Positions 6,073 through 41,247 of a stretch of DNA of 64,000 nucleotides are shown in pieces (the stretch's first letter is position 1; the number at the start of each line of letters is the position of its first letter). Origin of the DNA: a phage. The notes under the pieces were generated by a model. That model was not told where the DNA came from. It did no database searches and saw only the letters and a program-made list of their open reading frames with translations. The stretch lies in assembly GCA_020381345.1 (NCBI GenBank), contig GCA_020381345.1_3636.1, one strand, 5' to 3'. Both the position numbers and the translations under genes were made by a program.

Positions 6073-9000
6073 TGCCAATTGCAATGATTGATAACATCGT
6101 TGCTTCTGCAAGATCTTCAAGTTATGACTGGAACGCATCCAAGGCAGCTCTGGCTGACAGCCTGAACACTGTGACCACCAGAACTTTGGATAAGATTTTT
6201 GAGGGCAACAAATCTTACAGAAGTCAGCAAGATAGACAAAAGCTTCTCAGATCTTCTGCTGCACCTTGCTCTGTAGTGTATGGAAAGACACGCACATCTG
6301 GATTGCTTGCGTTTTTGGAGCAGGATAGCGACAGAACCCTCCATTGTGCTATTGTTCTTGCCAATCACCCTCTGGAAGGTATAGAAGATATACTTATCGA
6401 CGGTAATCCTATTTCCTCGTATGGAGATCTGGTATCGTGGGAGCTACATAACGACAGAAAAACATCTGATCCTTTCATGGGTACACACTGCCCATCATGG
6501 TCACCCGACATGATAGGTAGAGGGATCAGTTGGCTACGTGCCAGCTTCAGGTTTGACCCTAACAAGTTTCCTTTTGGGTTGCCAAACGTTACACTTGTCA
6601 AGGTTGGTAAAAAATGCTATGATCCTCGTATCAGTAAAGAGGTGTATACCAATAACGCGGCCTTGGTGATCCTAGACTATTTAAGAACGTACCTTAAATG
6701 TCCTGACGAAACCATTAACTGGGAGTCCTTCAAGGAGGCTGCCAACATATGCGACGAGGCGGTAAAAAACGCTGACGGAACCAGTGAGCGACGTTACACC
6801 ATTAACGGTGAGTTTGACATGGATGAGGCCCCAGCAAGCATTATGGCAGAAATGCTGAAAGCTTGTGGTGCAGATCTCAGCTATGTAGCTGGTAAGTATG
6901 GTTTGCTGGTTGGTGCATACTATGGCCCAGCAACAATGACACTGAGTGAGGATTGTGTCTGTGGTGAGGTCAAGATCTATCCGGAAGCCTCATTTGACAA
7001 AAGATCCAACACAATAACTGGCAGATTCACCAGTCCTACCAAAGGGTATTCTGAAACAGATTTCCCATCAGTGTTTGTCCCAGAGTGGATAGAGAAGGAT
7101 GGAGAAAGAAAGATAATCGATATAGACTATCGCTTTGTTACCAGTCCTTATCAAGCTCAGCGTGTTTCTGCAATCTTCCTAAGACGTGCCAGAGCTGGCA
7201 GGATTATTGAAGTCACCTGCAATATGCGAGGTTTCAAATTTAAACCTGGTCGTTACGTTACAATGGACCTCCCAAGTATTGGTATAGTGGGCCAAGAAAT
7301 GAGAGTTCTTGAATGGGAGTTTACCAAAAAGGGTGGTGTCAAGGTAAAACTTCGTCAAGATGCTAAAGAGTGGAATGATGCCACAGGACAACTTCCGGAT
7401 TCTGGCGATGTAGATATTCCAATATCTCCATCTGGTGTAGCTCAACCGCAAAACTTCAGATATTCCGTTCTCCAAGCTGGAGAAGTAACTCACGGTGTTT
7501 TGGCTTGGGACAACGTTGGGACCTACGCTCAAAATATTGTGCAGGTAAGAAAGAACGGAGAGATTGTTTGGACAGCACAAACAGTTGAGCAGTTTGTCCG
7601 AGTAGAAGGCTTGACCAAAGGGTCATACACAGCAACCGTGGTTGCAACATCTTATAAAGGTGGCGTATCTCCGGAAGCATATTGTGAGTTCAACATTCAG
7701 GCACCTGAAGCTCCTGTTTCTGTGGAGGTTAAACAGGGATACTTTGCTATTACCCTGATCCCGCACAGCAGAGACTTGGCTAGTGTAAGCACCCAGTACG
7801 ACTTTTGGACATCTGGGATGACAAGATTGCCAGATACCAGTGATGCAACCGTTACTTCAAAAGCCACTCGTATGGGTGTTGGTTCAACTTGGACATCTGA
7901 AGGTCTGCAGAACGATAAGATTTATTACTGGTATATCAGGACAACAAATGCTTTTGGTTCATCTGCTTTTGTGGAGTGTGCAGCCCACTGTTACACATCC
8001 ATAGAAGATCTTATGCCACAGATTGATGCTGAGTTCAAAAAGACAGAGACTTATAAAGAGCTTACCGCCAATCTTGATAATGCAGTCAAGGAAATGGATA
8101 AAAATGTTGGTGCAGTCAATGACCGTGTTACTAGCATTTTTGAAGAGCTTGGGGATACAATAGAGGGTGTTGTCAGAGAGACGACAGAAAAATTTACAGG
8201 GGTTAATGGAGAAATTTCTGCCCTTAACAGTAAGCTGGTAGCAGCTCAGCAATCCTTTGACGATAAACTTGCAGCAGAGTCTGGTAGGCTTGGGTCACTA
8301 ATCGAGACAACAAATAGATCAACCGTTGATCTTGTTAATCGTAAAACTCAAGCATTGAGTGAGCAAATAACTGCAACTCAAGGTACTCTGCGGGAAGAGT
8401 TGAAGAACACTGAGAGCAAACTTAACTCCTCTATTCAAGAAACCAACAAGGCAACAACCGACCTGCTAAATAAGACAACGGAAGCTATTAAGCAGGATCT
8501 GGTGGCAGCTACAGGGAAGATCACCAAGCTGGAAGATGATGTGCAGAAAGAGGTTGCCAATCTGCAAGCATCTATTCAAGAAACTAATAGTACAACAGTT
8601 GATCTTGTTAATAATACAGCCACAGCGATCCGTCAAGAACTTACCTCTGCAAAACAAGAAATTGTTGACGAAATGGGTAATATTGATGAGCTTAGGGCTA
8701 CAGTATCTAATACCTCTAAAGCTGTAACAACACTTGAGGGTAAAATAGATGCTCAGTGGGGGGCTAAGATTCAGGTTGACAGCCATGGTAATAAATATGT
8801 GGCAGGTATCCAGCTGGGCATGGAGGGGTCTGGAGGACAAGTTCAATCATACTTTATGGTTAGTGCAAACAACTTTGCGGTGTACAACCCTGGTAACGGC
8901 ACAGCAACCCTTGCTTTCGCAATCAAGAATAACCAAGCGTTCTTGAAAGACGCTTTTATAGAGAATGGCACGATCTCCTCTGCCAAGATCGCACAAGAAA

Positions 9001-27009: not shown

Positions 27010-27064
27010 CTCAGTCTCTCTTGTTGTATTGTTAGTAGGTGCATGAACACCTTATATCTCACTT

Positions 27065-28840: not shown

Positions 28841-29106
28841 TACTCTTCCTCCATAGTTTCACCAAATACTTCGATACGAGCATCGAGCTCGGTTGCTTTC
28901 AGCTCCCCAACAAAATCTTTTAGTTCTTTCTCGTCCAGATCGTAAGCCCACACACAAGAAGAACATGCAGATTTCACAATCAGCAGCGTAGATACACGGC
29001 CTGACTCTGTGATCATGCTCACAATGGTTCCAACAGGGAACGTGTTGATAGCTTTTTTAACTGGTCGTTCAGCTTTGATTACTACCTCTGTTGCCATAAA
29101 TAACAT
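28840..29106 (-). CDS. small hypothetical protein
   Basis: 88 aa. Confidence 0.35.
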   Translation of the reverse strand: MLFMATEVVIKAERPVKKAINTFPVGTIVSMITESGRVSTLLIVKSACSSCVWAYDLDEKELKDFVGELKATELDARIEVFGETMEEE

Positions 29107-29112
29107 CCTCTC

Positions 29113-30573
29113 TTACTTAGCGTACTCAATTAATTCCACAGTTTTCCCAAAGCTCGGGATATAATTTTTATTATACCCCTCGGTGAGAACCCATAAAGTA
29201 TCGTACTTTTTCCACTTGTTGTCAACAGCCTTTTGTTCAAAGTTATGCTCAAAGTATAGGTCTGTCAATACGATGACATCTTTTGCATTCGGTATGTTGG
29301 CATCCAGATACTCGAACACGCAAGCAGCTGTTGTGCCCCATGTTGAGTGGACCTCATAGTTGATCATCTCATCTATGTTACCGCGAGTGTATACTTTAAC
29401 CTCTCCAACCTCAGTTGACCAACAGAACATTGTAACCTTAAACTCTTTATACAGATTGCACAATCCGGTGATTTCATTGAACATTTTCTTTAAAGTTCTT
29501 TGAGAGATCGAGCCAGAAACGTCTAAAGCTACCACAATATCTATGGTGTTTTCCGGATTACGACCAGGAACAATAACGTGCTGGTTCTTGTTTATAGCCC
29601 CAACTTTTCGCATTGTGCTGGTCAAAGACCCAGATCGGCGACCAGGTTTTCTGTAGGTCAGTTCAGCCTTTCGTTTAGACAACATGCGTTGCTTGATGAT
29701 GTCTATATAATTGATTACAGGCTTACCTCTATTCTTGACAAACTCACGAACCGCCTCAGGGCAACGGCCTCCGGAAGCTTGCATTGCTGCCTCCAGCATG
29801 TCACCAGAGTCCTGCATGGCCTGATCTTTATCAGATTGACTGATTACAGGTTGTGGCTGATCATACCCCATAGCCTTTCCAAGATCATCACTGGTGCCAC
29901 CGTTACCACTCATGTGATCATCGGTTTGTCGCTTATCTCCTTGAGAGTTCTCACCTTTACCGCTCTTACTTTTACCGTTATTCTGATCTCTTTGCTTATC
30001 AAGAACTGCATAGACGTTCTCAGCAATCCATCCATGAAACTTCATGTCGCAGTAGCAGCTGGCTAAGAATCCAAAAGGCTTACCTTTCACGAACGTAGTG
30101 CTTTTCCCCTTCGGGAAGAAAACACAAGGGGGCTTGCTAAAGTCAACCACAAGACCTGTGTTGATAACGTGATCACAAGCAATATTGAACAGTTCCGGCT
30201 CAAAGCTTTTACCACGGACCAGGTGATCACAGATAATATGTCCCACCTCATGTGACAGAAGGAAGGCCACCTCTTTCACAGATTTTGGGGAATAGAAAAC
30301 TTCAGCCATCTCAAACTGCTTGTCAGTTAGAGAAGCCTTAAGAATAGCCTTGCGTTCATCAGCCAATCCCATAATGAACTCAGGACTGTAATAAATGCGT
30401 TTATGGTCGGTTGCCATGGTGGAGCACCATGTGTGGTTTTCTACGAACTGCAACCCTGACAGCAGTGTGCCATAAAACGGCAGCTTTTCAAGGAGATACA
30501 TACGTGCAGCCTGCAACATTCTCAGGGCATCATCTTTTTGTGAGGCAATGATTTCTGAACTTCTGCTATCCAT
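29113..30573 (-). CDS. metallopeptidase-like (HExxH) + von Willebrand factor A domain protein
   Basis: HEVGHIICDH zinc-protease-type motif in N-terminal half; VALDVSGSIS (DxSxS MIDAS) in C-terminal half; start placed at the second ATG (MDSRSSEI) which has a GGAG RBS; the track start at 30594 lies inside a hairpin. Confidence 0.6.
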   Translation of the reverse strand: MDSRSSEIIASQKDDALRMLQAARMYLLEKLPFYGTLLSGLQFVENHTWCSTMATDHKRIYYSPEFIMGLADERKAILKASLTDKQFEMAEVFYSPKSVKEVAFLLSHEVGHIICDHLVRGKSFEPELFNIACDHVINTGLVVDFSKPPCVFFPKGKSTTFVKGKPFGFLASCYCDMKFHGWIAENVYAVLDKQRDQNNGKSKSGKGENSQGDKRQTDDHMSGNGGTSDDLGKAMGYDQPQPVISQSDKDQAMQDSGDMLEAAMQASGGRCPEAVREFVKNRGKPVINYIDIIKQRMLSKRKAELTYRKPGRRSGSLTSTMRKVGAINKNQHVIVPGRNPENTIDIVVALDVSGSISQRTLKKMFNEITGLCNLYKEFKVTMFCWSTEVGEVKVYTRGNIDEMINYEVHSTWGTTAACVFEYLDANIPNAKDVIVLTDLYFEHNFEQKAVDNKWKKYDTLWVLTEGYNKNYIPSFGKTVELIEYAK

Positions 30574-30606
30574 TAAAACTCCAGAAGGGGCCATTGGCCC
30601 CTGTCA

Positions 30607-31650
30607 TTATTTAACGTGTTTGAAAATACCTGCCAACTCGGTCATTGTCATGCGGGTGGTCTTCATAAGATCTGTCATAGCTTTCTCCATAATTGGAGAT
30701 ACTACCATAAAGTTTCCTTTAGTGAAACCTTTATTCCAGTCGGTCACCAACAGCGGTTTAAGTCCAGCTCCGAGACGTTTACCAGTTAAAGCACAGCATT
30801 TGCGAATATACGAACTCTTAAATTGGCTGAACGATAGATCAACTTTCATACCTGCATCGTAGAACGTTTGACAATAGAAAGTGTAAGCCTTAGCAATCTC
30901 AACATCATCAGGTAGTGCAGGAACCTCTTCTGCAATCTCCTCTTCAACCACCTGAGGCTCTTTTTCCTCTTCAGAGGTCTGTTCTTCAATTTCTTCTGTC
31001 ACAGTCTCGTTTACGATGTCTGAAATGTGTTTGTTGGCTGCACGATCAGCCATGAAATTTTTAAAATCCTGCATCGGTGACATATCTTCTTCCTCTTCGT
31101 CAAATAGTGCTAGTTTATCTTCTTCTGACCCGTATTGCAAGATGAAATCTTCAAAAGTATATTCATCTTTTAATTCCTCCATACGCTCTTCGCTCAGGTG
31201 GAGCATCATCTGCTGGACAATTTTTCGATCAGTTTTGTCTTTAATCAGGATTGCAGTCTTTTTATCTACCAGACAGTCCTTCAGAGCGTTGCACCTCAAC
31301 CCTACCACACAACAATTATCAATTGCGTAAGGACCTTCATCATCTATCCGCTCCAGAGATGGGTAGAAAGGATTTCCCAGTCCGTTTTCATCTGTGTGCA
31401 TGTCGAAAGGTATAAGGGTATAGTCGCATACCCCCTCTCCTAAAAGTTTTTTACCAAATAGGAGGTATTCTTCCCACGACAGGTCGAACTCTATATCTCG
31501 TTTCCGTGCGTTATTCTGTTTGCGTCTATATTTTTTGAGCAAGCGCTCTAACTCTTCTGGTGTATAATATTTTTCAAGATTCATGAGTCGTCTCTCGTGC
31601 TCTGTAAGTGAAGAAATCGTATCAATTGTCTCAACAGATGTCAACATCAA
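30607..31650 (-). CDS. hypothetical protein with acidic linker
   Basis: 347 aa; first gene of leftward operon; glutamate-rich central segment. Confidence 0.45.
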   Translation of the reverse strand: MMLTSVETIDTISSLTEHERRLMNLEKYYTPEELERLLKKYRRKQNNARKRDIEFDLSWEEYLLFGKKLLGEGVCDYTLIPFDMHTDENGLGNPFYPSLERIDDEGPYAIDNCCVVGLRCNALKDCLVDKKTAILIKDKTDRKIVQQMMLHLSEERMEELKDEYTFEDFILQYGSEEDKLALFDEEEEDMSPMQDFKNFMADRAANKHISDIVNETVTEEIEEQTSEEEKEPQVVEEEIAEEVPALPDDVEIAKAYTFYCQTFYDAGMKVDLSFSQFKSSYIRKCCALTGKRLGAGLKPLLVTDWNKGFTKGNFMVVSPIMEKAMTDLMKTTRMTMTELAGIFKHVK

Positions 31651-31657
31651 AAACGTG

Positions 31658-31686
31658 TTGACTTTACTCTAACTCCACAATATAGT
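31658..31686 (+). promoter_or_regulatory. sigma70-like promoter for rightward middle operon
   Basis: TTGACT-17-TATAGT, ~40 nt upstream of ATG 31727 in divergent intergenic region. Confidence 0.5.
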
Positions 31687-31726
31687 GCACCCATTCGAAA
31701 GAAAACTAACATAGGAGCACTTACTT

Positions 31727-32626
31727 ATGGCAAATCTTAACAGTTTTAGTACGCGGTGGAAACAGGACATAACAACCAATCTTTCAGCTGGGGACATCCT
31801 TTCTGCAATTTACGAGGCTTTAGATGATAAAGCTACTTCAAAAGCGGTTTGTACCAACCCACTAATTCCTGTAGTGATGAAGGTTATTGAGCGTAGATTG
31901 GTATCTGGGTCTGATAAGTGGACATATTTAGATAATGAAGGACACACCTATTCCAATGGGTACGTCGATATAAAAGTAGAATACGCGGTATCATACCGCC
32001 GGAGCGGTTCTGTAACTTTCAACTTCTCTGGAGGTTTTCGATCTCTGGCTACCTCACCTTTTGTTTCCTCAGAGGAGAAGTATGAGCTGCCATTTCTTTG
32101 GATGATGGCTAACGCGACAGGAAAAACCCCCGTTAGCATCCGAGTAAAATACAACTACAACGGATCTAGTAAGATCTATGCCGAAAGTGTCTCAGCAAGT
32201 TTTTATTTTGTGATGGGGGATGGAATCCTCAAACATATAAAGATGTGCGATATGCATGATGTTATAAATGAAGTGACTGATAAGAATGTTCTAGTGAAAG
32301 ACCTCAACAATTTTTATACACCCGGAGACTATTACGTCAGCCGTCCACTGTGCATCTTTAATGCCGCACACCCTCTAGGTGAGTATTTGATCGCCAATAG
32401 CGATATTGCCAATAACCGCTTCGAGGTAGCAAGAGTTCAGAATGAGGTATTGACATCCTGCAAAAGTGGTGATAAATTTACTGATGAAGAGATGGGTGTT
32501 TTAGAAATGATGGGGTATAAATGCAGTCTTTGGGTAGATGAGGTGTTTAATGACTACATCTCCGGACAGGATATTTACCCGTTAAAGAAGTATACTGATA
32601 CAAGTTTAATTTATGCGGGGATTTGA
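31727..32626 (+). CDS. hypothetical protein
   Basis: AGGAG RBS 9 nt upstream; promoter TTGACT-17-TATAGT upstream. Confidence 0.45.
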   Translation: MANLNSFSTRWKQDITTNLSAGDILSAIYEALDDKATSKAVCTNPLIPVVMKVIERRLVSGSDKWTYLDNEGHTYSNGYVDIKVEYAVSYRRSGSVTFNFSGGFRSLATSPFVSSEEKYELPFLWMMANATGKTPVSIRVKYNYNGSSKIYAESVSASFYFVMGDGILKHIKMCDMHDVINEVTDKNVLVKDLNNFYTPGDYYVSRPLCIFNAAHPLGEYLIANSDIANNRFEVARVQNEVLTSCKSGDKFTDEEMGVLEMMGYKCSLWVDEVFNDYISGQDIYPLKKYTDTSLIYAGI

Positions 32627-32901
32627 CTATGATGAAGACATGTGGTAATGTATATTACGTCGGTGAGCATGTTCAGGCAGACAGTGTGTGGAAATCTATT
32701 AAGTCCACCACTGACGATGCCTTTCTGAGTGGACTATGTTTCCCCAATCCGGGAGACATCCTCCCTCACCCTGGAGATTTTGTTGTCAACAAGATGGACG
32801 GTTATACCGTGTGCCTGATGGTTGAGAAAATCTTTTTAGACACTAGGCACAATCACCGTCTTGTGTTAAAATTTCAAGAATGTAAAATGACAATTGCCTA
32901 A
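32623..32901 (+). CDS. hypothetical protein
   Basis: 92 aa coupled ORF. Confidence 0.3.
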   Translation: MTMMKTCGNVYYVGEHVQADSVWKSIKSTTDDAFLSGLCFPNPGDILPHPGDFVVNKMDGYTVCLMVEKIFLDTRHNHRLVLKFQECKMTIA

Positions 32902-32914
32902 GGAGGCCTTACCT

Positions 32915-33271
32915 ATGTCTAAAGTTACTTATCGTGCAGCTATTTACTGCAATGAACACCCGATCAATAATGATGGTCACTGCCTTTTTAAAGAAAATCA
33001 GTTGGGCTGTATTGTCCTACCTGATGAAGGGGAAGGTTATCTGATTGCATTGACAGGGTTTGAGCCTGAAGCTCTGGAAGCCAATCTGGACTACCTGGTA
33101 GAAGAGGGTGCTGCAGACCTGGTTGCCAATGGCTTCTCCGTAAGCCTTGACGAAGTGGAGCGCTTCATGGGTAATTACCGTGTAGTGCGTGAGTTTACTA
33201 TCGAGGTTGAAACTCCAGAGTGGGGCAGCCCTGAAACCAATGTCGAAGAAAAAGAAGAGGAGGTAGAATAA
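32915..33271 (+). CDS. hypothetical acidic protein
   Basis: AAGGAGG RBS before ATG at 32915. Confidence 0.4.
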   Translation: MSKVTYRAAIYCNEHPINNDGHCLFKENQLGCIVLPDEGEGYLIALTGFEPEALEANLDYLVEEGAADLVANGFSVSLDEVERFMGNYRVVREFTIEVETPEWGSPETNVEEKEEEVE

Positions 33272-33528
33272 TGAAAGTGCAGATCTTGACTAATGCCGAG
33301 AAGATGTTTATTGAAGATACACCTTTTGAAGCTGGTGAGCTACAGTTTGTTTATTTTGTTGACTTAGATAAGGTGTTTCCTGCACTGAATCTGGGTCTGG
33401 ATGAAGTTCCTCATAAGGTTTTGTGCCAAGTTGTTCGTGCCTTGGCGGCAGAGGGGGAGTTCCACACCCTTCAAAATGTCCAGACCTACGGGTATCTTGA
33501 ACTACAACGAGAAGAAGAGGTGGACTGA
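33271..33528 (+). CDS. hypothetical protein
   Basis: GGAGG RBS. Confidence 0.35.
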   Translation: MKVQILTNAEKMFIEDTPFEAGELQFVYFVDLDKVFPALNLGLDEVPHKVLCQVVRALAAEGEFHTLQNVQTYGYLELQREEEVD

Positions 33529-33530
33529 TA

Positions 33531-33911
33531 ATGGCACGGTGGAAGACAACAGTTGACCTTCATGATCAGTGGTTAGGACGCATCACTGAAGACGGGAAAC
33601 TAGTGGAGTGGGACAATAAGCATGTTAGCGAGTTGGCAAGCATTGTGGCTGGCAAGTTACGCTCCAAGTTCCCTGAACAACTGGATCCTGATAATTCAAA
33701 GTTCGATCCTGAGTTGGAGGATGTTGTATACTACTTCGATACCGTGGATGACTACGATGCGTGGTTTGCAGCACGAGAGCTTTACCCACAAGGCTCTGCT
33801 ATGCGCCAGATGGAAGAAGATTATCCTCCGTGCGAGCAATTTAATAGCGCAATGACTTGCCTCTACGATTGGGCAGATAAGAACCTTGTCTGGATTCGGA
33901 CTGTATTCTAG
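33531..33911 (+). CDS. hypothetical protein
   Basis: 126 aa ORF. Confidence 0.4.
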   Translation: MARWKTTVDLHDQWLGRITEDGKLVEWDNKHVSELASIVAGKLRSKFPEQLDPDNSKFDPELEDVVYYFDTVDDYDAWFAARELYPQGSAMRQMEEDYPPCEQFNSAMTCLYDWADKNLVWIRTVF

Positions 33912-33917
33912 CAGGTA

Positions 33918-34220
33918 GTGGCAAGGATGCCACTTAAAAGAGTAATAAACATGTTATACCAGAAACACGAACTTTGTGCAGAAAAAGAGTTAAATTTTGA
34001 CAAAGCTATCCACAGATATTGTTATGGAAAAACCGGAAGACAAGTAAGAAGATGCACTCCAGCATTCTTTCACCCCAGCAGGCGGCTAAGTCCTGAAGAG
34101 GCGACAGCAGAAAGGGTTGCATACAACTGGGAAGTTGTGTACGATATTGACAGATCCGATGTGACATCTGTTTTGGAAAACTTTGAAAACACTTACACAC
34201 AAGTAGAGGACTTTTACTAA
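33918..34220 (+). CDS. hypothetical protein
   Basis: 100 aa ORF, start uncertain (GTG 33918 or ATG 33927). Confidence 0.3.
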   Translation: MARMPLKRVINMLYQKHELCAEKELNFDKAIHRYCYGKTGRQVRRCTPAFFHPSRRLSPEEATAERVAYNWEVVYDIDRSDVTSVLENFENTYTQVEDFY

Positions 34221-35404
34221 TGTCAAGAAACGTATTTGAAAGTGGTCAAATCACTGTCCGTGAGTTGCCAGCTATCATTCAGTTTGCCCAGCGTCATAAC
34301 CGATCTGTCCTGATTTTAGGACCAATGGGTGTGGGAAAGAGTCAGGTGATGAAGCAGATCGCTGATAATATGTTCGGTGAGCGAGATGACAACCTGGTTG
34401 ACGTGCGGCTGTCAGATAAAGATCCTGCCGACTTATCTGGGCTACCTATCCCTGTAGAAGCGGATGGGACTACACGTACAGTGTTTGCAATCCCAGAATT
34501 TTGGCCTGCGGATCCTGACTGGAGCGGAATTGTCTTTCTGGATGAGCTCACTCATGCAGATAACTACCTGCAAAAGGTTGCAATGCAGATTATGCTCGAC
34601 CACAAGTGCGGCACCTATGCATTCCCTAAGGGCTCTGTTTTTGTAGCTGCAGGTAACCGTTCTACAGATGGTGCTGTTCTTTCGGCGCTCGAAGCCCCTC
34701 TGGCTAACCGCTTTATCATTGTAGAAGTTACAAGCAACGCAGAGGTGTTTATTGAGGACTACGCATTCCTTAATGGGGTGCACTCCTCTGTAATTGGATA
34801 TCTGAAAAGAGTTCCATCAGCTATTGATAATTATGAGGCCATGGCTGAGATTAATTGTCCATCTTTTGCCACACCGCGATCTTGGGTTGCTGCATCTGAT
34901 ATCTTGCACGATTTTGACAGCGGTATTATTTCTGACGCTATGGCCCGTGTTCTTCTGCAAGGTGCTATTGGTCACACTGCAGCGGTAGAGATCTGGACTT
35001 ACCACACCAAGAAACGCAATTTACCGGAAATCGGTCGGATTATGGCAGGTGGCTGCAAAGAATACGTAGGCCCTAAGCAGCCAGACATTTTGTGGATTCT
35101 TGGATCTGAAGGTTGTATCGCTATTCGTAATATGATGGAAAATGCAAGTATCTCAGACGAAGATCTTGTCAGCTGCGTGGCAAACTTCCTCGATTTCCTT
35201 TGGGAAAACTTCAAGGACGAGAACCGAGATTTTGTATTCTCAGTCTTTATGGCGATGATGAAACCTAATGCCTTAGGAAATGCCTTGCTTATCGGTAAAG
35301 GGCGTGACAAGATTGTTGCTCAGCTGATCAAAGCATACCCAAACCTGATGAAGATTGTAAAAGAGTTTGGTGAAGAGTTTAGCGCCATTTTGGCTAAAGC
35401 TTAA
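34220..35404 (+). CDS. MoxR/AAA_5-like AAA+ ATPase
   Basis: Walker A GPMGVGKS, Walker B IVFLDEL, sensor AAGNR. Confidence 0.65.
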   Translation: MSRNVFESGQITVRELPAIIQFAQRHNRSVLILGPMGVGKSQVMKQIADNMFGERDDNLVDVRLSDKDPADLSGLPIPVEADGTTRTVFAIPEFWPADPDWSGIVFLDELTHADNYLQKVAMQIMLDHKCGTYAFPKGSVFVAAGNRSTDGAVLSALEAPLANRFIIVEVTSNAEVFIEDYAFLNGVHSSVIGYLKRVPSAIDNYEAMAEINCPSFATPRSWVAASDILHDFDSGIISDAMARVLLQGAIGHTAAVEIWTYHTKKRNLPEIGRIMAGGCKEYVGPKQPDILWILGSEGCIAIRNMMENASISDEDLVSCVANFLDFLWENFKDENRDFVFSVFMAMMKPNALGNALLIGKGRDKIVAQLIKAYPNLMKIVKEFGEEFSAILAKA

Positions 35405-35413
35405 GGGGGTTGT

Positions 35414-35794
35414 ATGGCTAAAGTAGGTAAGCGGGGAAACTACCTGGTGGTATTGACCGAGGAGCCGGAGAAGGAGTACGAATGCAGCTCCACTTGCGTG
35501 ATCGATATCCGAGAAAAAGATGTAGATGAAATCTGGTTTAAAATATTGGACGCTTGCGATAGCAGTGATTATTTCTTCATCTATGTCAACGATAAGGCTG
35601 GGTTCTTCCATGACGACGGAGAGTTGCCGTATGAAATCTATGAACTTGTAGAGGCTTGCCATCGTGGAGATGCGGAGTTGTTTGGCTTACGGCTGAAAAG
35701 CGGTAAATTCTTCTATCAAGATGAGTGCATGAATCTTCATAACTTTGTAGAGGGAACTTGCAACGATGGAGAGATTTTGGCACACTACGATTAA
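35414..35794 (+). CDS. hypothetical protein
   Basis: 126 aa ORF; terminator follows. Confidence 0.4.
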   Translation: MAKVGKRGNYLVVLTEEPEKEYECSSTCVIDIREKDVDEIWFKILDACDSSDYFFIYVNDKAGFFHDDGELPYEIYELVEACHRGDAELFGLRLKSGKFFYQDECMNLHNFVEGTCNDGEILAHYD

Positions 35795-35806
35795 TTTCTA
35801 AGACCT

Positions 35807-35832
35807 CCCCCGCTTCGGCGGGGATTTTCTAT
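35807..35832 (+). terminator. rho-independent terminator
   Basis: CCCCGC TTCG GCGGGG then ATTTTCTATTT. Confidence 0.6.
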
Positions 35833-35843
35833 TTGGAGTTATT

Positions 35844-36344
35844 GTGAAAATTAAGATCTTTGCTATTATTTTGAGCGCATTTTTATCGCTGCCTGTTGTT
35901 GCAGCACCAAAACAAAAAGTATATCATACTTGCAAGCCCTCAGATACTAAGGAAAACATTCTGGCATGCAATATCTACAGGGAGGCTAGAGGGGATGGCA
36001 CGATGGGTATGCTGGCATCCGGGTTTGCCACACTAAACAGGAAATCTCACCCCAAATACCCAGACACTATAAGAAAGATTGTCTACCAACCTAACCAGTT
36101 TTCGTGGACAAACCACGGCAAAACTTTTAAGGTGACAGAAAAAGATTCATGGGATCACGCTAAAAGTCTTGCAAAGATGCTTCTAAAGGTCTATAATAAC
36201 AACCATGTTGCATACATGGCTATGGACATAACAGGTGGAGCAACACACTACCATACAACCAAAGCACGACCGAAATGGGCAAAAAAGATGCAGAGGACAG
36301 CTCAATTCGGGAGTCATATCTACTACAAGGAGCGCAATAAATGA
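35844..36344 (+). CDS. secreted cell-wall hydrolase (SleB/Hydrolase_2-like), candidate lysin
   Basis: GTG start after GGAG; N-terminal signal peptide-like segment MKIKIFAIILSAFLSLPVVAAP; motif NIYREARGDG...ATLNR resembles the SleB-family signature. Confidence 0.5.
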   Translation: MKIKIFAIILSAFLSLPVVAAPKQKVYHTCKPSDTKENILACNIYREARGDGTMGMLASGFATLNRKSHPKYPDTIRKIVYQPNQFSWTNHGKTFKVTEKDSWDHAKSLAKMLLKVYNNNHVAYMAMDITGGATHYHTTKARPKWAKKMQRTAQFGSHIYYKERNK

Positions 36345-38323
36345 TTGTAAACAGTAATGAAACTAAAGCAGTACTAACCGGAAATATGGAGGTCACCAGG
36401 GGCTCAATTTCTCTGAACAAAGAGACTTTTGGGCTAATCATTAAAGGGATTTACGAAGATAAGGTGCTGGCAAGCTGCCGTGAACCAATCTTCAATGCTG
36501 TGGACTCCCATGTTGAGTCTGGACGGGGTGATGTACCGATCATCATTCACTCCCCTACAGACCTTGAACCATACTTCTTTGTGCAGGACGTTGGATTGGG
36601 CATGTCAGAAGAGATGGTCCGCAACACTTTCATGAACCTCGGGGAGTCAACCAAGCGCAACAGCAACGCTCTGGTAGGTAATAAAGGTGTTGGTTCAAAG
36701 GCTCCGTTCAGCATGGTGGACACTTTCGATGTTATCAGTGTGCACAATGGTGTTGAAAGCACATATCTATTGTTCTTGGATCAGGGTATCCCAAACGTTA
36801 CCAAGATCCGCGAGCGGAAGACTGAAGAGCACAACGGGGTAAAAGTTCAGTTTCATGTTAAGAAAGAGCATGTCCTGAAATATCGCACTGCTATTGCATC
36901 GTGCTTACGCTATGCGAAGTTTCCGTTCACCGTCACCGATCCCATGACTAGTAAGATGTTAGAAGGTGACAAGGTTGAGGCGCAGTATCGCTACGAGAAA
37001 GATGGTTGGAAAATGACTATCCTGAAAGGTTATACCAGCTCTGATGAGAGCCGTGTGGTGATGGGACACCAACCTTACCGCTCTAAGTTTCTGGAAACAT
37101 TGACCGATTACCCTGCAATCTGCGTGGAAATTCCTATTGGGGATTGCAATATTAACCCTGGGCGTGAATGGACCATAGAGGGCCATGACGACGGTGGATT
37201 CCAGGATCGCCTGGAGGCCTTTGTCAAAGAAGGTATACGTCTTCGCGGGGCAGAAGTTGTTGCAGAACTGGAGACGGCAAAAACCTCCGCAGAAGCACGT
37301 GAAATGATGAAGAATAGTGGAGTGTTCGGACACATCTTCGGCAAAAACTTTATGTGGAACCGTTGGGAAGAAACAGGGCTTGGCGACTTAGGCGATTGTG
37401 AAATTTTCGCTGGCGGCTTAAATAAAGGCCGCATAGGCTATGCCAGTTACGGAAAGTCGGAGTTCTTACGAGGCGTATACCTTGTATTTAACGACGGAGA
37501 CGGCAAATATAACCGAAATAAGTGTAACTACTTAAGCGAGATCACCGGACGCAACGTTTTCTATTGCCGTAACACGGATCTGGTGGAAGAGTTTAAAGAA
37601 GCGGCACACCACCCGTTCTTTGCAGATACGGTCAAATTGTTATCAGAACTCCCTCGCCGACCTGTCAAGAAAGGTGAAACAAAAACTCGTTATGAGCCAG
37701 GCTATTGGGTTAAAAAACTTGAGAAGGATGGTTACTTCCGCCGTGAGCGTATTACTAAGGCAGAGTTCCGGAAGATTAAACACTGCATCCCTTATGAGGG
37801 TGATATCCAACGTGGAAGTTGTTGGCTGGGGCAGATGAGTAACATCTACCAGCAAGATTATGACCGTGTACGTGCGGCACTTCAGATTCCTGAAGGTGAA
37901 GATCTGTATCTGGTATCTGAATCTCGTCTGCTTTGGACTGATCCTGATTGCCAGTATGTTACAGAGAAGAATGTGGAGCACCTGTTGAAAGAGGATGCTT
38001 GGAAATTCTTACTGACCCGTGCAGCAAATGAGACTTCTTATGACAGCCTGTATAGACAATTAGGGAAAATTATTCCCATGCAAGATTTTGGAAATTATCG
38101 GCCACATTTCCACAAGTGGGAAGGTAACACCACGTGGAAGCACAGTGAGCTAAATCATCGTGCCAAAATCTTAATCGCCAACCGAGTTAAATGCGGGAAG
38201 GCCTATATTGCAAGATTGGAAAAGAAATACCCGCTTTTGAAGCATGTAGGCTTGAAATATTGGGACACTCCTGCTATGATTGAATACCGTGAACTGATCG
38301 ATACAAAGAATAACATCAAATAA
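36341..38323 (+). CDS. Hsp90/MORC-like GHKL ATPase domain protein (660 aa)
   Basis: Bergerat-fold motifs in order: N-box EPIFNAVD (ExxxNAxD), G1 DVGLGM, G2 GNKGVGSKAPF (cf. Hsp90 GQFGVGFYSAF); AAGGAG RBS. Confidence 0.6.
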   Translation: MIVNSNETKAVLTGNMEVTRGSISLNKETFGLIIKGIYEDKVLASCREPIFNAVDSHVESGRGDVPIIIHSPTDLEPYFFVQDVGLGMSEEMVRNTFMNLGESTKRNSNALVGNKGVGSKAPFSMVDTFDVISVHNGVESTYLLFLDQGIPNVTKIRERKTEEHNGVKVQFHVKKEHVLKYRTAIASCLRYAKFPFTVTDPMTSKMLEGDKVEAQYRYEKDGWKMTILKGYTSSDESRVVMGHQPYRSKFLETLTDYPAICVEIPIGDCNINPGREWTIEGHDDGGFQDRLEAFVKEGIRLRGAEVVAELETAKTSAEAREMMKNSGVFGHIFGKNFMWNRWEETGLGDLGDCEIFAGGLNKGRIGYASYGKSEFLRGVYLVFNDGDGKYNRNKCNYLSEITGRNVFYCRNTDLVEEFKEAAHHPFFADTVKLLSELPRRPVKKGETKTRYEPGYWVKKLEKDGYFRRERITKAEFRKIKHCIPYEGDIQRGSCWLGQMSNIYQQDYDRVRAALQIPEGEDLYLVSESRLLWTDPDCQYVTEKNVEHLLKEDAWKFLLTRAANETSYDSLYRQLGKIIPMQDFGNYRPHFHKWEGNTTWKHSELNHRAKILIANRVKCGKAYIARLEKKYPLLKHVGLKYWDTPAMIEYRELIDTKNNIK

Positions 38324-38333
38324 GGAGACCAAG

Positions 38334-39539
38334 ATGATTTTCATCTACGAACATTTCAAAACTCGTAAAGAAGCACGCGACCGCCGTGCAGAACTTGAGA
38401 AGAAGGGTTTCACATGTGCCATTGAGAAAGGTGACACAACCTGGACACTGGCAGTGGGTGCCCCAGAATTGTTCGATCCTGACCGTGACAGCGTCTGCTA
38501 CACCCGTGAGGATTTTGAAACCCGTGAAGAGGCACGTCTATTTCGATATGGGCTGGAAGATAACGGTAAGTACGCCATGATCTTAGACTTAGGCGAAGGT
38601 TCCGTTAAACGTTGGGGCGTGATATACCCACTGTGTGTTGTTCACGGTGTGGGGTTCACCGGGGTGGCAATCAAGTCAGAAGAACCTTTAGTAGAAGTCA
38701 AAGACCCGGTGCTGGAGGTGGTGAGCAGTGTGTCTCAGCAACAGACTCGAAGCATCGAGCCTTTAGTAGTTATTTGTGGGGAACTCCTCCAGATCACCTG
38801 CAACGAAGGCATTTTTGAAATTCGCCGCAGCGAAAGTGAGGAAGTTTACCAGAAAGTCTTCGACCATATCTCTGTTCAGGAATATGATGAGGCAATTGGT
38901 GAAATCCTTGTCTGGCTGGAACGCAAGAATGAGTTCACCACACTTGCAGACAACCTGATCATGAAAGATGGTAAGCTCTACTACTACGGTGTAGAGATGC
39001 GATCCACCATTGCAAAGAAAATTGAGAAAGACTATGCAGACGGAACACTGGATGACCGCTATGTGAAATTCCTCGTTCGCCTGCTACGCAATCCTTCTGC
39101 AAAATCTGTAAACATGCTCTACGATTTTATGCAGGCCAACGATATCCAGATTGCAGAAGATGGTCGAATCATTTGCTACAAAGGGGTTCAGTTTAACGGC
39201 AGCAAGTGGGTGGATTGGCACAGTGGTAAAGTTCCACAATACCAGGGTGCTTTTGTATCCATGCCTCGTAACTTTGTAGAGGATGATCCTGAAGCTGCGT
39301 GCTCCTATGGCTTACACTGCGCCAGCAAGGAGTATGCAAAGAGCTACGGCACTGTAATGACTGTCATGGTTGACCCTGCAGATGTGGTTAGTGTGCCATA
39401 CCAACACAATAGCGCTAAGTGCCGTGCATGCCGCTATGAGATTGTGGTAGCTCCGGAAGCACGCAAGGACGGAGACCCGATTGAATACGTGGTTGACCGA
39501 GACGGTAACACTATCGACATTCTTTACGAGGAGGCGTAA
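38334..39539 (+). CDS. hypothetical protein, likely partner of the GHKL ATPase
   Basis: AAGGAGA RBS; 401 aa; start 10 nt after upstream stop. Confidence 0.45.
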   Translation: MIFIYEHFKTRKEARDRRAELEKKGFTCAIEKGDTTWTLAVGAPELFDPDRDSVCYTREDFETREEARLFRYGLEDNGKYAMILDLGEGSVKRWGVIYPLCVVHGVGFTGVAIKSEEPLVEVKDPVLEVVSSVSQQQTRSIEPLVVICGELLQITCNEGIFEIRRSESEEVYQKVFDHISVQEYDEAIGEILVWLERKNEFTTLADNLIMKDGKLYYYGVEMRSTIAKKIEKDYADGTLDDRYVKFLVRLLRNPSAKSVNMLYDFMQANDIQIAEDGRIICYKGVQFNGSKWVDWHSGKVPQYQGAFVSMPRNFVEDDPEAACSYGLHCASKEYAKSYGTVMTVMVDPADVVSVPYQHNSAKCRACRYEIVVAPEARKDGDPIEYVVDRDGNTIDILYEEA

Positions 39540-40909
39540 TGGAAAAAGGGCAGTATGATGTAGGCACAGATGCTGCCCTCGTTGCAATCATGAGCGGTGA
39601 GAATGTCTTCGTTTCAGGACCCGCAGGTTGTGGGAAGACGTACCTCATCAACATGATCCAGTCAATGTATGGAGACTCTTGCATAACGGTTGCCCCGACA
39701 GGGGTAGCCGCTTTAAACGTTAATGGAGCAACAGCACACCGAACCTTCGATCTTGCAGCAGGTGTGAGCATGGAGTCAGACTGGACCGCAATAAGGGCAA
39801 AAACAGCAAAGCCTTTGAAAAGCAAGGCATTTACCATCCTAATTATCGATGAAATCTCTATGATCCGTGCTGATAAGTTTATAGAGATGGATAGGAAACT
39901 CCGCTTCCTTCGAAAAAATGACAAACCTTTCGGAGGCATACAGGTCATATTGTTTGGCGATTTTTACCAGGCACCTCCTGTTGTCTCTTCTATGGAGAAG
40001 GAAGCCTACTTCAACTTCTACCATACGGACCTGTGTTGCTACACCGAATCTTGGAAAGAACTTGACCTCCACAACATAGCTCTAATAGATCAGTTCCGAC
40101 AGGAGTCTATTCGATTTGCCACAATGCTCAACTGTGTTCGTGAGGGTCGTCGCATAAAAGAGGTTGTAGCAGAACTTAATGCTCGCTGTTACAAAGGCGG
40201 TGTACCAACAGACGCTCTCACAATTTGCGCCACCAACAAACAAGCAGAGGAAGTGAACAGAAGGTTCTATGATGCCATCAACGCCCCAGAGAAGGTATAC
40301 ACTGGTGAAATGAAGGGTAAGTTTCCCTCCACCCTGCCAGTTGAGCAGGAGATGAAGTTGAAAATTGGCATGAAAGTTATGATAACCGCCAACGATGTTG
40401 ACCCGACGCACAAAGTACCTTATTATGTTAACGGAACACGTGCCACAATTGTTAAATTTAAGAACAAGGCAGTGGTGGTAGAGCTTGAAGATGGAACACA
40501 GGTTGACATAGAGCAGAGGTTGTGGGAGAATAACGAGTATAAGCCCTCTCAGAGATACAACATTGCAGAAAGGAAGATGGAGAAGTTTATAGAGAGGGTA
40601 GTGATTGGGTCATACAAGCAACTTCCTCTGAAATCTGGGTACGCCGTAACATCTCATAAAAGTCAAGGACTTACTCTAGATTGTTACAACCTAGACCTTG
40701 GAAAGAACGGAGCTTTCTCTCCTGGGATGACGTATGTCGCTTTGAGTAGAGTTAAGACAATACAGGGAATAAACTTGTTGCGTCCACTAAGAGAAGTTGA
40801 CATTATTGTTGACCCGCGAGTCGTAGAGTTTTACAATACAACATTCCCTGACTTAGACAAAATTGTCAGGAAAGATTTTGAAACCAGAGCAGAAGAGGGG
40901 GACGTATGA
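39539..40909 (+). CDS. dda: Dda/RecD/Pif1-like superfamily 1 DNA helicase
   Basis: Walker A GPAGCGKT, Walker B ILIIDEISM, C-terminal motif AVTSHKSQGLTLD, motif VALSRV. Confidence 0.75.
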   Translation: MEKGQYDVGTDAALVAIMSGENVFVSGPAGCGKTYLINMIQSMYGDSCITVAPTGVAALNVNGATAHRTFDLAAGVSMESDWTAIRAKTAKPLKSKAFTILIIDEISMIRADKFIEMDRKLRFLRKNDKPFGGIQVILFGDFYQAPPVVSSMEKEAYFNFYHTDLCCYTESWKELDLHNIALIDQFRQESIRFATMLNCVREGRRIKEVVAELNARCYKGGVPTDALTICATNKQAEEVNRRFYDAINAPEKVYTGEMKGKFPSTLPVEQEMKLKIGMKVMITANDVDPTHKVPYYVNGTRATIVKFKNKAVVVELEDGTQVDIEQRLWENNEYKPSQRYNIAERKMEKFIERVVIGSYKQLPLKSGYAVTSHKSQGLTLDCYNLDLGKNGAFSPGMTYVALSRVKTIQGINLLRPLREVDIIVDPRVVEFYNTTFPDLDKIVRKDFETRAEEGDV

Positions 40910-41247
40910 GTTTGTGGAGAAATATCGTTAACTACGTGTGTGGCAATCCAACTCCTGAAGAGAAGGATGTTGTGATTCACGATTTTACTAAAAGATCTCG
41001 TGAAAAAGATCTACTGCTAACAAAGGTGACTGATAAAGATCCTGCAGTAGGGGACTGGGCAGGTTTTGCGTTTACATCGGACGAATACACCTTTAACAAA
41101 GGTGACTACCTTGTTGTGGATTTTAACGAAGACATTGAGGGTGCTGAACCTTACTATCAAACCCTTATTGTTGCAGGGTGTGTTAATCTCTCTGCAGGTA
41201 TGCACAGTTTGATTCTTTTTGAGCTTGACTCTGAAGACCTTCAGTAG
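40906..41247 (+). CDS. hypothetical protein
   Basis: 113 aa coupled ORF; hairpin follows. Confidence 0.35.
   Translation: MSLWRNIVNYVCGNPTPEEKDVVIHDFTKRSREKDLLLTKVTDKDPAVGDWAGFAFTSDEYTFNKGDYLVVDFNEDIEGAEPYYQTLIVAGCVNLSAGMHSLILFELDSEDLQ

Follow-up and report, generated by a model that had tools for sequence, protein, structure and literature searches.

The 64,000-nucleotide stretch of DNA analysed here, referred to as the window (contig GCA_020381345.1_3636.1 of GenBank assembly GCA_020381345.1), is by its sequence a Vequintavirus, an rV5-like coliphage. [quoted passage not shown] The two genes almost certainly work together: they are tandem, same-strand genes in nearly all other lineages, and comparative genomics strongly supports their products being parts of one machine, as a preliminary description of the window had supposed, despite the split between the genes here. 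This genomic pairing is the strongest result of our analysis.

The finding as such is already known, because annotation or publications cover the genes, their domains and their pairing and a 2025 preprint supplies a first phenotype, and the window itself adds nothing beyond existing annotation. What we add is a quantified coupling of the two genes across lineages, with a split layout that we infer to be derived; the structural placement of the ATPase beside NorQ and CbbQ, together with a remote link of the putative peptidase fold to minigluzincins and M48 peptidases; and the depletion of peptidase-VWA mutants in a strain carrying the defence system DS-28, on which the preprint makes no comment. 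The module occurs very widely: it is found in N4-like and rV5-like phages, in several groups of jumbo phages and in many phages from aquatic sources, and the peptidase-VWA protein makes up some 27,000 clusters. The family stays a worthwhile experimental target; the module has become testable through the reported tie between its ATPase and evasion of one defence system, and the gene for its peptidase-VWA partner is the obvious next one to examine.

Pairing of the two genes across lineages

Searches with tblastn matched 724 phage records for one protein and 821 for the other, with nearly identical taxonomic spread, the matches bearing the names "N4 gp25-like" and "N4 gp24-like". We fetched 80 loci from IMG/VR with an alignment of the ATPase alone and then scanned them with profiles of both families; these loci are dominated by one aquatic clade and hence are not independent. 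A DUF2201 gene was directly downstream of the ATPase gene, on the same strand and about 100 bases off, in 68 of the 80. Among the other 12, nine contigs end too early, one carries an extra gene ahead of the contig end and two are split, one of them an rV5-like and the other a Klebsiella-phage-like contig. The tandem pair was likewise present in nine of ten contigs taken from genome bins of bacteria, and eight further lineages have the same order, either adjacent or with few inserted genes: N4 (gp24/gp25), RaK2, PBECO4, AR9, PAC2, PBES02, A5-4 and a 578-kb phage contig. Throughout these tandem lineages the ATPase gene is upstream of the VWA-peptidase gene, usually directly; a homing endonuclease gene and three small genes lie between the two in the PA5oct-like PAC2, and the pair of Bacillus phage AR9 stands behind an annotated early promoter.

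Among the closest known systems is the N4 pair, gp24 (AAA ATPase) and gp25 (vWFA protein), to which profiles of the window families are homologous at E = 3e-57 and 4e-54, respectively, and whose domain content is alike. In N4-like phages this conserved pair has for years been listed as "AAA ATPase" and "vWFA protein", with no function given (PMC2784036). N4 and most other phages have the genes in tandem with the ATPase first, whereas in the window the VWA-peptidase gene lies in the opposite arm of a divergent promoter, on the other strand and 3.6 kb away. The split recurs in rV5, Bas56, contig L008, the Klebsiella-phage-like contig L009 and, from tblastn coordinates, Av-05. Because Certrevirus PBES02 and phage A5-4, which are more distant members of Vequintavirinae, stay tandem, we take the split to be a derived rearrangement of the rV5/Klebsiella-phage/Av-05 branch. 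In both N4 and the window rIIA, rIIB and a helicase gene follow further downstream, and this order from ATPase through rIIA and rIIB to DNA helicase, common to rV5-like phages (34220..40900 in the window) and N4 (locus L088), suggests an old early/middle gene block across two virus families.

The pair is repeatedly found in nucleotide-metabolism or replication modules, with dCTP deaminase and thymidylate synthase annotated in N4 and RaK2/PBECO4 and a Thymidylat_synt gene (Pfam) near the pair in aquatic contigs. A cellular version of the same two-gene architecture, again in tandem, is present on a 1.25-Mb bacterial contig, where a DUF2201_N/DUF2201 protein (called "predicted metal-dependent peptidase" by JGI) accompanies an AAA_3/AAA_5 MoxR ATPase; this bacterial example (P0154) shares about 24% identity with the window peptidase-VWA protein.

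Several neighbourhoods deserve separate mention, the first two from loci L108:1-13239 and L006:1-13434. On one bacterial contig the pair is accompanied by an SNF2-like helicase that bears DUF8437, by a protein kinase and by a PP2C phosphatase, a setting that resembles a conflict system. Genes for ClpS, HSP20 and ClpP flank the pair on the 578-kb phage contig, which hints at a proteostasis context. In one aquatic contig a 340-amino-acid (aa) radical-SAM-like protein with a CxxxCxxC motif is encoded right after the ATPase (L036:2961-3983), in the usual place of the VWA-peptidase gene, and the contig ends too soon for that gene to follow.

Domains and conserved residues of the peptidase-VWA protein

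The preliminary description had read the minus-strand gene as combining an HExxH zinc-protease-type motif with a VWA MIDAS, and profile hidden Markov model searches bear out both domains. In Pfam, DUF2201_N ("putative metallopeptidase", a zincin; E = 3e-28, 99.5 bits against a cut-off of 23.2) is followed in the N- to C-terminal direction by DUF2201 ("VWA-like"; E = 4e-11, 43.7 bits against 26.4), both above the gathering threshold, and both were matched in 26 of 26 aligned relatives; PHROGs assigns the protein to phrog_1314 (E = 6e-123). An alignment of 28 relatives with identity down to 24% has H108, H112, N130, D134, D351, S353, S355, T414 and D438 invariant and E109 and H117 near-invariant, a third zinc ligand being predicted. 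The MIDAS is complete (DxSxS...T...D on a predicted Rossmann-like fold). Such conservation of the motifs is far beyond chance.

In a wider set of 182 diverse relatives DxSxS is kept in every one and the full HExxH in 171 (94%). In the remaining 11 (P0223, P0225, P0227, P0233, P0243, P0262, P0266, P0273, P0294, P0298 and P0026; about 6%) Q, N, G, L, I, V or A stands in place of the catalytic Glu, but all three His are still there (HxxxHxxxxH); these variants would bind zinc but are probably non-proteolytic. A full-library profile search put the family, counted in clusters of 50% identity, at 27,027 with a threshold of E<=1e-3 and at 7,282 with one of E<=1e-30; word-indexed homologue searches gave few distant relatives. 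Among Vequintaviruses the protein is 98-100% conserved.

The AlphaFold model (predicted local distance difference test, pLDDT, 79) consists of a confident N-terminal helical domain, a disordered linker, a helical middle and a compact C-terminal alpha/beta domain. The linker (aa 199-228) differs in sequence and length from homologue to homologue. A direct search of the protein sequence against the PDB matched nothing. A profile of the N-terminal 200 residues did find matches there, over an E range of 5e-4 to 0.7: the minigluzincin selecase MJ1213 (5e-4), HtpX (0.008), projannalysin (0.017) and the M48 peptidases BepA and Ste24. The selecase, HtpX and projannalysin matches span only about 50 residues, those of the strand and the helix carrying HExxH. 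In fold searches with the model, the VWA domain dominated the hit lists. The likeness to minigluzincins and M48 peptidases is remote, confined to this helix and the preceding strand region, and the window protein differs from them in the spacing of the third ligand (HExxHxxxxH), in the fusion to a VWA domain and in the coupling to an AAA+ ATPase. Many relatives have weak Pfam matches to Peptidase_M48, VWA_CoxE and VWA, and three of 26 have marginal SprT-like ones (best E = 0.004). The peptidase assignment seems reasonable on these similarities.

The literature on DUF2201 and COG3864 yielded nothing functional. PHROGs and RefSeq call the DUF2201_N+DUF2201 family "HNH endonuclease" (phrog_1314, N4 gp25, AR9 gp029, PBECO4 gp009), and a 100-aa open reading frame (ORF) upstream of the ATPase gene (33918..34220, +) is labelled "ATPase" (phrog_13164); neither name agrees with the domains present, and both look like propagated misannotations.

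The MoxR-class ATPase

Sequence and model together identify the 394-aa product of the plus-strand gene as a MoxR-class AAA+ ATPase, as the preliminary description had it, although AAA_5, the family it named, is itself below threshold. In 43 homologues, the Walker motifs (Table 1), sensor 1 N146, R164 (in LANRF, the arginine finger) and sensor 2 R220 (in TPRSW) are invariant. Because direct Pfam scores are sub-threshold, membership in the MoxR class rests on transitive homology, homologues at 31-36% identity (E~1e-44) carrying AAA_3/AAA_5/bpMoxR, and on the fold. Foldseek searches of the PDB with the AlphaFold model (pLDDT 85.7) returned NorQ, NorQ-NorD complexes and CbbQ as top matches (E = 5e-8 to 1e-7), and direct sequence search of the PDB gave only P-loop-level matches to ClpB/ClpC. 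The model has beta-hairpins at aa 75-90 and aa ~128-139 (129-134); judged solely by where they fall in the secondary-structure string, these are probably the helix-2 insert and the pre-sensor-1 hairpin that typify the clade. Searches of NCBIfam yielded no meaningful family, and those of PADLOC only marginal, uninformative matches.

The resemblance to NorQ-NorD and CbbQ-CbbO extends from the ATPase fold to a partner with N-terminal domain, disordered linker and C-terminal VWA domain (DxSxS-T-D MIDAS), and to adjacent genes in most relatives, at a sequence identity of only 16-22%. In contrast to NorQ and CbbQ, the phage ATPase continues at its C terminus for another ~100 aa, a helical region (aa ~288-393). 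Its partner has a zincin N-terminal domain that NorD and CbbO do not, and its VWA domain is compact (~135 aa), shorter than that of NorD. The phage pair has no known metalloenzyme client.

Transposon-insertion phenotypes of the Bas54 orthologues

Saturated transposon libraries of Bas54 (MaxBurger), a Vequintavirus, have been analysed by HIDEN-SEQ (bioRxiv 10.1101/2025.11.20.689424). Bas54 is a sibling phage with no difference of substance: the window ATPase is identical to bas54_0063 at 392 of 394 positions and the peptidase-VWA protein to bas54_0055 at 479 of 486. Because the proteins are 99% identical and the layout is the same, Bas54 phenotypes should carry over to the window phage. Both genes are non-essential on Escherichia coli K-12, with insertions in 60 of 64 TA sites of bas54_0063 and 81 of 86 of bas54_0055. 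Citing plaque assays in its Fig. 4e, done with knockout mutants on K-12 strains that express defence systems of the clinical strain CFE311, the preprint states of bas54_0063 and bas54_0140 that both were "specifically required to overcome DS-28". DS-28 is a predicted defence system of that strain, made up of two genes and described as a small, uncharacterised, plasmid-associated two-gene family. When the K-12 library was compared by resampling with that designated "311", insertions in the ATPase gene vanished (log2 fold change, log2FC, -7.23; q=0) and those in the peptidase-VWA gene were depleted (log2FC -2.20; q=0.009), while neighbours from bas54_0053 to bas54_0067 did not change significantly (log2FC -0.9 to +0.8) (bioRxiv 10.1101/2025.11.20.689424). 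We read these figures as weak but real support for the peptidase-VWA partner contributing to the same task as the ATPase, and also as a sign that the ATPase does not depend wholly on this partner. The window holds no homologue of bas54_0140.

Two further points concern the preprint. The orthologue (bas54_0068) of a DNA helicase gene at ~39540..40910 (+) in the window is likewise non-essential on K-12 and strongly depleted in "311" (log2FC -6.32, q=0), and is absent from the main text discussion. In Extended Data Table 8, sheet Data S6 is titled "resampling_K-12_vs_CFE303", yet its command line and experimental file are those of the "311" library, and the sheet after it displays the same "311" file; the supplement labels may be duplicated or swapped. 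Another transposon-mutagenesis preprint does not mention these genes, and the CRISPRi-ART paper, which screened phage SUSP1, mentions neither MoxR nor metallopeptidase.

Proposed mechanism and alternatives

Our preferred reading, held with belief and doubt in equal measure, takes the two genes for the copies of the N4 gp24/gp25 module in the rV5 lineage, and the module itself for a remodelling machine that is driven by ATP, targeted through its VWA domain and directed at a host protein, probably with proteolytic action. By analogy, the ATPase would form a hexameric ring on which the VWA domain would dock, as in NorQ-NorD, CbbQ-CbbO and midasin; the MIDAS metal would grip an acidic residue of the target protein, and ATP hydrolysis would pull or twist the partner, straining its linker and thereby remodelling the target, which in most members of the family would probably be cut by the tethered zinc peptidase as well. 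In MoxR systems the VWA partner docks finger-in-pore on the ring with the MIDAS serving the target, and MoxR ATPases generally need a VWA partner for activity (PMC9976466, PMC13036017). The module would be an accessory host-interaction device, not a core replication or assembly function, that is dispensable on laboratory E. coli K-12 and would become critical in hosts with particular defences, as reported for the ATPase of Bas54 against DS-28.

A bolder form of this proposal, which we advance tentatively and regard as possible but less likely than not, is a phage "split AAA+ protease" in which the VWA-MIDAS captures a host immune or stress protein, the MoxR ring unfolds or pries it and the zinc peptidase cuts it. 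The target in E. coli would then be a DS-28 component or something that DS-28 senses, and the module, because it is found in thousands of phage lineages, would rank among the most widespread devices for counter-defence or host takeover and would give the family its first function.

Several observations weigh against the remodelling machine in one or the other of its parts. Peptidase-VWA mutants were down ~4.6-fold compared to complete loss of ATPase mutants, and the second anti-DS-28 gene named by the preprint is bas54_0140 (99 aa, unrelated), not bas54_0055; because of both, the ATPase may act partly without its peptidase-VWA partner. The genes are physically split in exactly the rV5 lineage, which could mean loosened coupling. 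Sensitivity to DS-28 may be indirect, because the module spans thousands of phage lineages and a rare plasmid-borne system is unlikely to be its sole purpose. Proteolysis cannot be the universal output, because 11 of 182 relatives are without the catalytic Glu, and the closest structural relatives of the ATPase, as far as the model indicates, are non-proteolytic maturation chaperones. The ATPase scores below the Pfam cut-offs (AAA_5 16.4 bits against 22, bpMoxR 15.8 against 27; E~0.01), and the secondary structure of the modelled VWA domain has no obvious extra hairpin that could serve as pore-inserting finger. Finally, binding between the two proteins, hexamers of the ATPase, cleavage through HExxH, the target and early expression are what we infer, whereas domain identities, conserved motifs, coupling of the genes across lineages, dispensability on K-12 and, from the preprint, the conditional requirement have been shown.

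A non-proteolytic maturation chaperone of the NorQ-NorD, CbbQ-CbbO, CoxD-CoxE or chelatase type, which would remodel a phage or host enzyme complex or deliver metal to it, is an unlikely though substantial alternative. The three-His site would then bind or donate metal and the DS-28 phenotype would be indirect, for example through a slowed or altered infection sensed by the defence. Metal-insertion and activase chaperones are the closest structural relatives of the ATPase, the partner has a NorD-like architecture, the His triad and MIDAS are universally kept even where the catalytic Glu is lost (11 of 182), and the pair recurs in the nucleotide-metabolism or replication modules of N4, RaK2/PBECO4 and aquatic contigs. 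Yet 94% of relatives retain the full HExxH and the domain matches true peptidases (selecase, HtpX, M48), no candidate client enzyme is consistently adjacent, and both genes are dispensable on K-12, which one would hardly expect if they served to mature a core enzyme.

Slightly less probable is that the two genes have become uncoupled in the rV5 lineage, the ATPase, mainly on its own or with the small protein bas54_0140, being the anti-DS-28 factor and the peptidase-VWA protein having a separate or minor role. This would agree with a split layout limited to this clade, with the far stronger depletion of the ATPase gene (-7.23) than of its partner (-2.20) in the same experiment and with the preprint's naming bas54_0140, not bas54_0055, beside the ATPase. 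It would leave to be explained why the peptidase-VWA gene is depleted at all (q=0.009) when flanking genes are not significantly so, why its product keeps every catalytic and MIDAS residue, with 98-100% conservation among Vequintaviruses, and why both genes hang from one predicted divergent promoter region; the general need of MoxR ATPases for a VWA partner (PMC9976466, PMC13036017) also argues against it.

We consider it very unlikely that HExxH acts as a SprT/Wss1-type protease, with the AAA+ protein in the manner of Cdc48, clearing host or defence proteins off phage DNA early in replication. The location of the pair in early or replication blocks of N4, AR9, RaK2 and aquatic phages, the likewise conditional essentiality in the same host of the helicase gene four genes downstream and the weak SprT-like Pfam matches in three of 26 relatives would fit. 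However, these matches are marginal (best E = 0.004) and bettered by those to M48 and minigluzincins, Pfam detected no DNA-binding domain, and synteny with replication genes may merely mirror early-gene order.

CobS/CobT-type AAA+/VWA pairs occur in phages, and the ATPase is a P-loop protein, but a CobS/CobT-like auxiliary chelatase or a packaging/terminase ATPase, the latter raised in the preliminary description as what would overturn its assignment, has a negligible chance of being correct and was rejected: Pfam, NCBIfam and PHROGs gave 0 profile matches to CobS, CobT, chelatase or terminase families, the structural neighbours are NorQ and CbbQ, the partner has a peptidase-type domain and not a CobT architecture, and the gene, unlike that of a terminase, is non-essential.

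Locus, coordinates and neighbouring genes

Many records of rV5-like coliphages (genus Vequintavirus), including phages nom, AlexBoehm (Bas56) and O157 typing phage 4, match the 6.5-kb region 29000..35500 at 96-98% DNA identity. Existing records call the peptidase-VWA gene either "VWA-like domain containing protein" or "putative metallopeptidase" and the ATPase gene "MoxR ATPase", and the 2008 rV5 record divides the peptidase-VWA gene into ORF12 and ORF13. Our ORF listing places both genes as in the preliminary description, with opposite strands, 3646 bases between them (its 3.6 kb) and a 141-base intergenic region from which two divergent transcription units bearing the pair are predicted to begin. 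A consensus scan predicted back-to-back sigma-70-like promoters there, TTGACT-17-TATAGT at 31658..31686 (+) and TTGACA-17-TACGAT at 31644..31616 (-), in agreement with promoter P11 annotated upstream of the leftward gene in the rV5 record. Because both genes hang from this one region, which we take to be early, co-expression of the split pair is plausible and probably occurs.

Table 1. Coordinates in the window of the two genes, their domains and motifs, and the intergenic region
Feature	Position	Strand	Remarks
Peptidase-VWA gene, 486 aa	29113..30573	-	Orthologue of N4 gp25, rV5 ORF12/13, bas54_0055, bas56_0053
Zincin-like N-terminal core, aa 1-198	29980..30573	-	Predicted from conserved residues and profile matches; pLDDT >90 over most
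HEVGHIICDH motif	30223..30252	-	Confirmed by translation; conserved N130, D134, N138 further on
Gly/Ser/Lys/Asp-rich low-complexity linker, aa 199-228	29890..29979	-	Predicted disordered, pLDDT 28-38
Compact C-terminal VWA domain, aa 346-481	29131..29538	-	MIDAS D351, S353, S355, T414, D438
MIDAS DVSGS (D351, S353, S355)	29509..29523	-	Confirmed by translation
MIDAS T414	29332..29334	-	T of DxSxS-T-D
MIDAS D438	29260..29262	-	D of DxSxS-T-D
Divergent intergenic region, 141 bases	31586..31726		Back-to-back sigma-70-like promoter matches (consensus scan)
MoxR-class AAA+ ATPase gene, 394 aa	34220..35404	+	Orthologue of N4 gp24, rV5 ORF4, bas54_0063, bas56_0061
Walker A GPMGVGKS	34319..34342	+	Invariant in 43 homologues; confirmed by translation
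Walker B FLDE, D108-E109	34541..34546	+	Invariant in 43 homologues

The minus-strand ORF runs up to an ATG at 30594. We chose the start at 30573, which gives 486 aa and matches the GenBank annotation, because a Shine-Dalgarno GGAG lies seven bases upstream of it, whereas the ATG at 30594 sits inside a GC-rich hairpin. This palindrome, AGGGGCCATTGGCCCCT at 30586..30602, is located between a Srd-like gene and the peptidase-VWA gene and holds the ATG at 30594 in frame; within the leftward operon a role as attenuator or in RNA stability is possible.

Sixteen records named "Campylobacter phage" (host C. jejuni; e.g. GenBank MG065646) also match the 6.5-kb region, the eight listed being 96-98% identical; their host labels look doubtful and may reflect contamination or mislabelling. 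The gene at 31727..32626 (+) has been called "putative alpha 1-3 fucosyltransferase" since the rV5 paper; it has 0 Pfam matches and falls in phrog_12338, a family of no assigned function.

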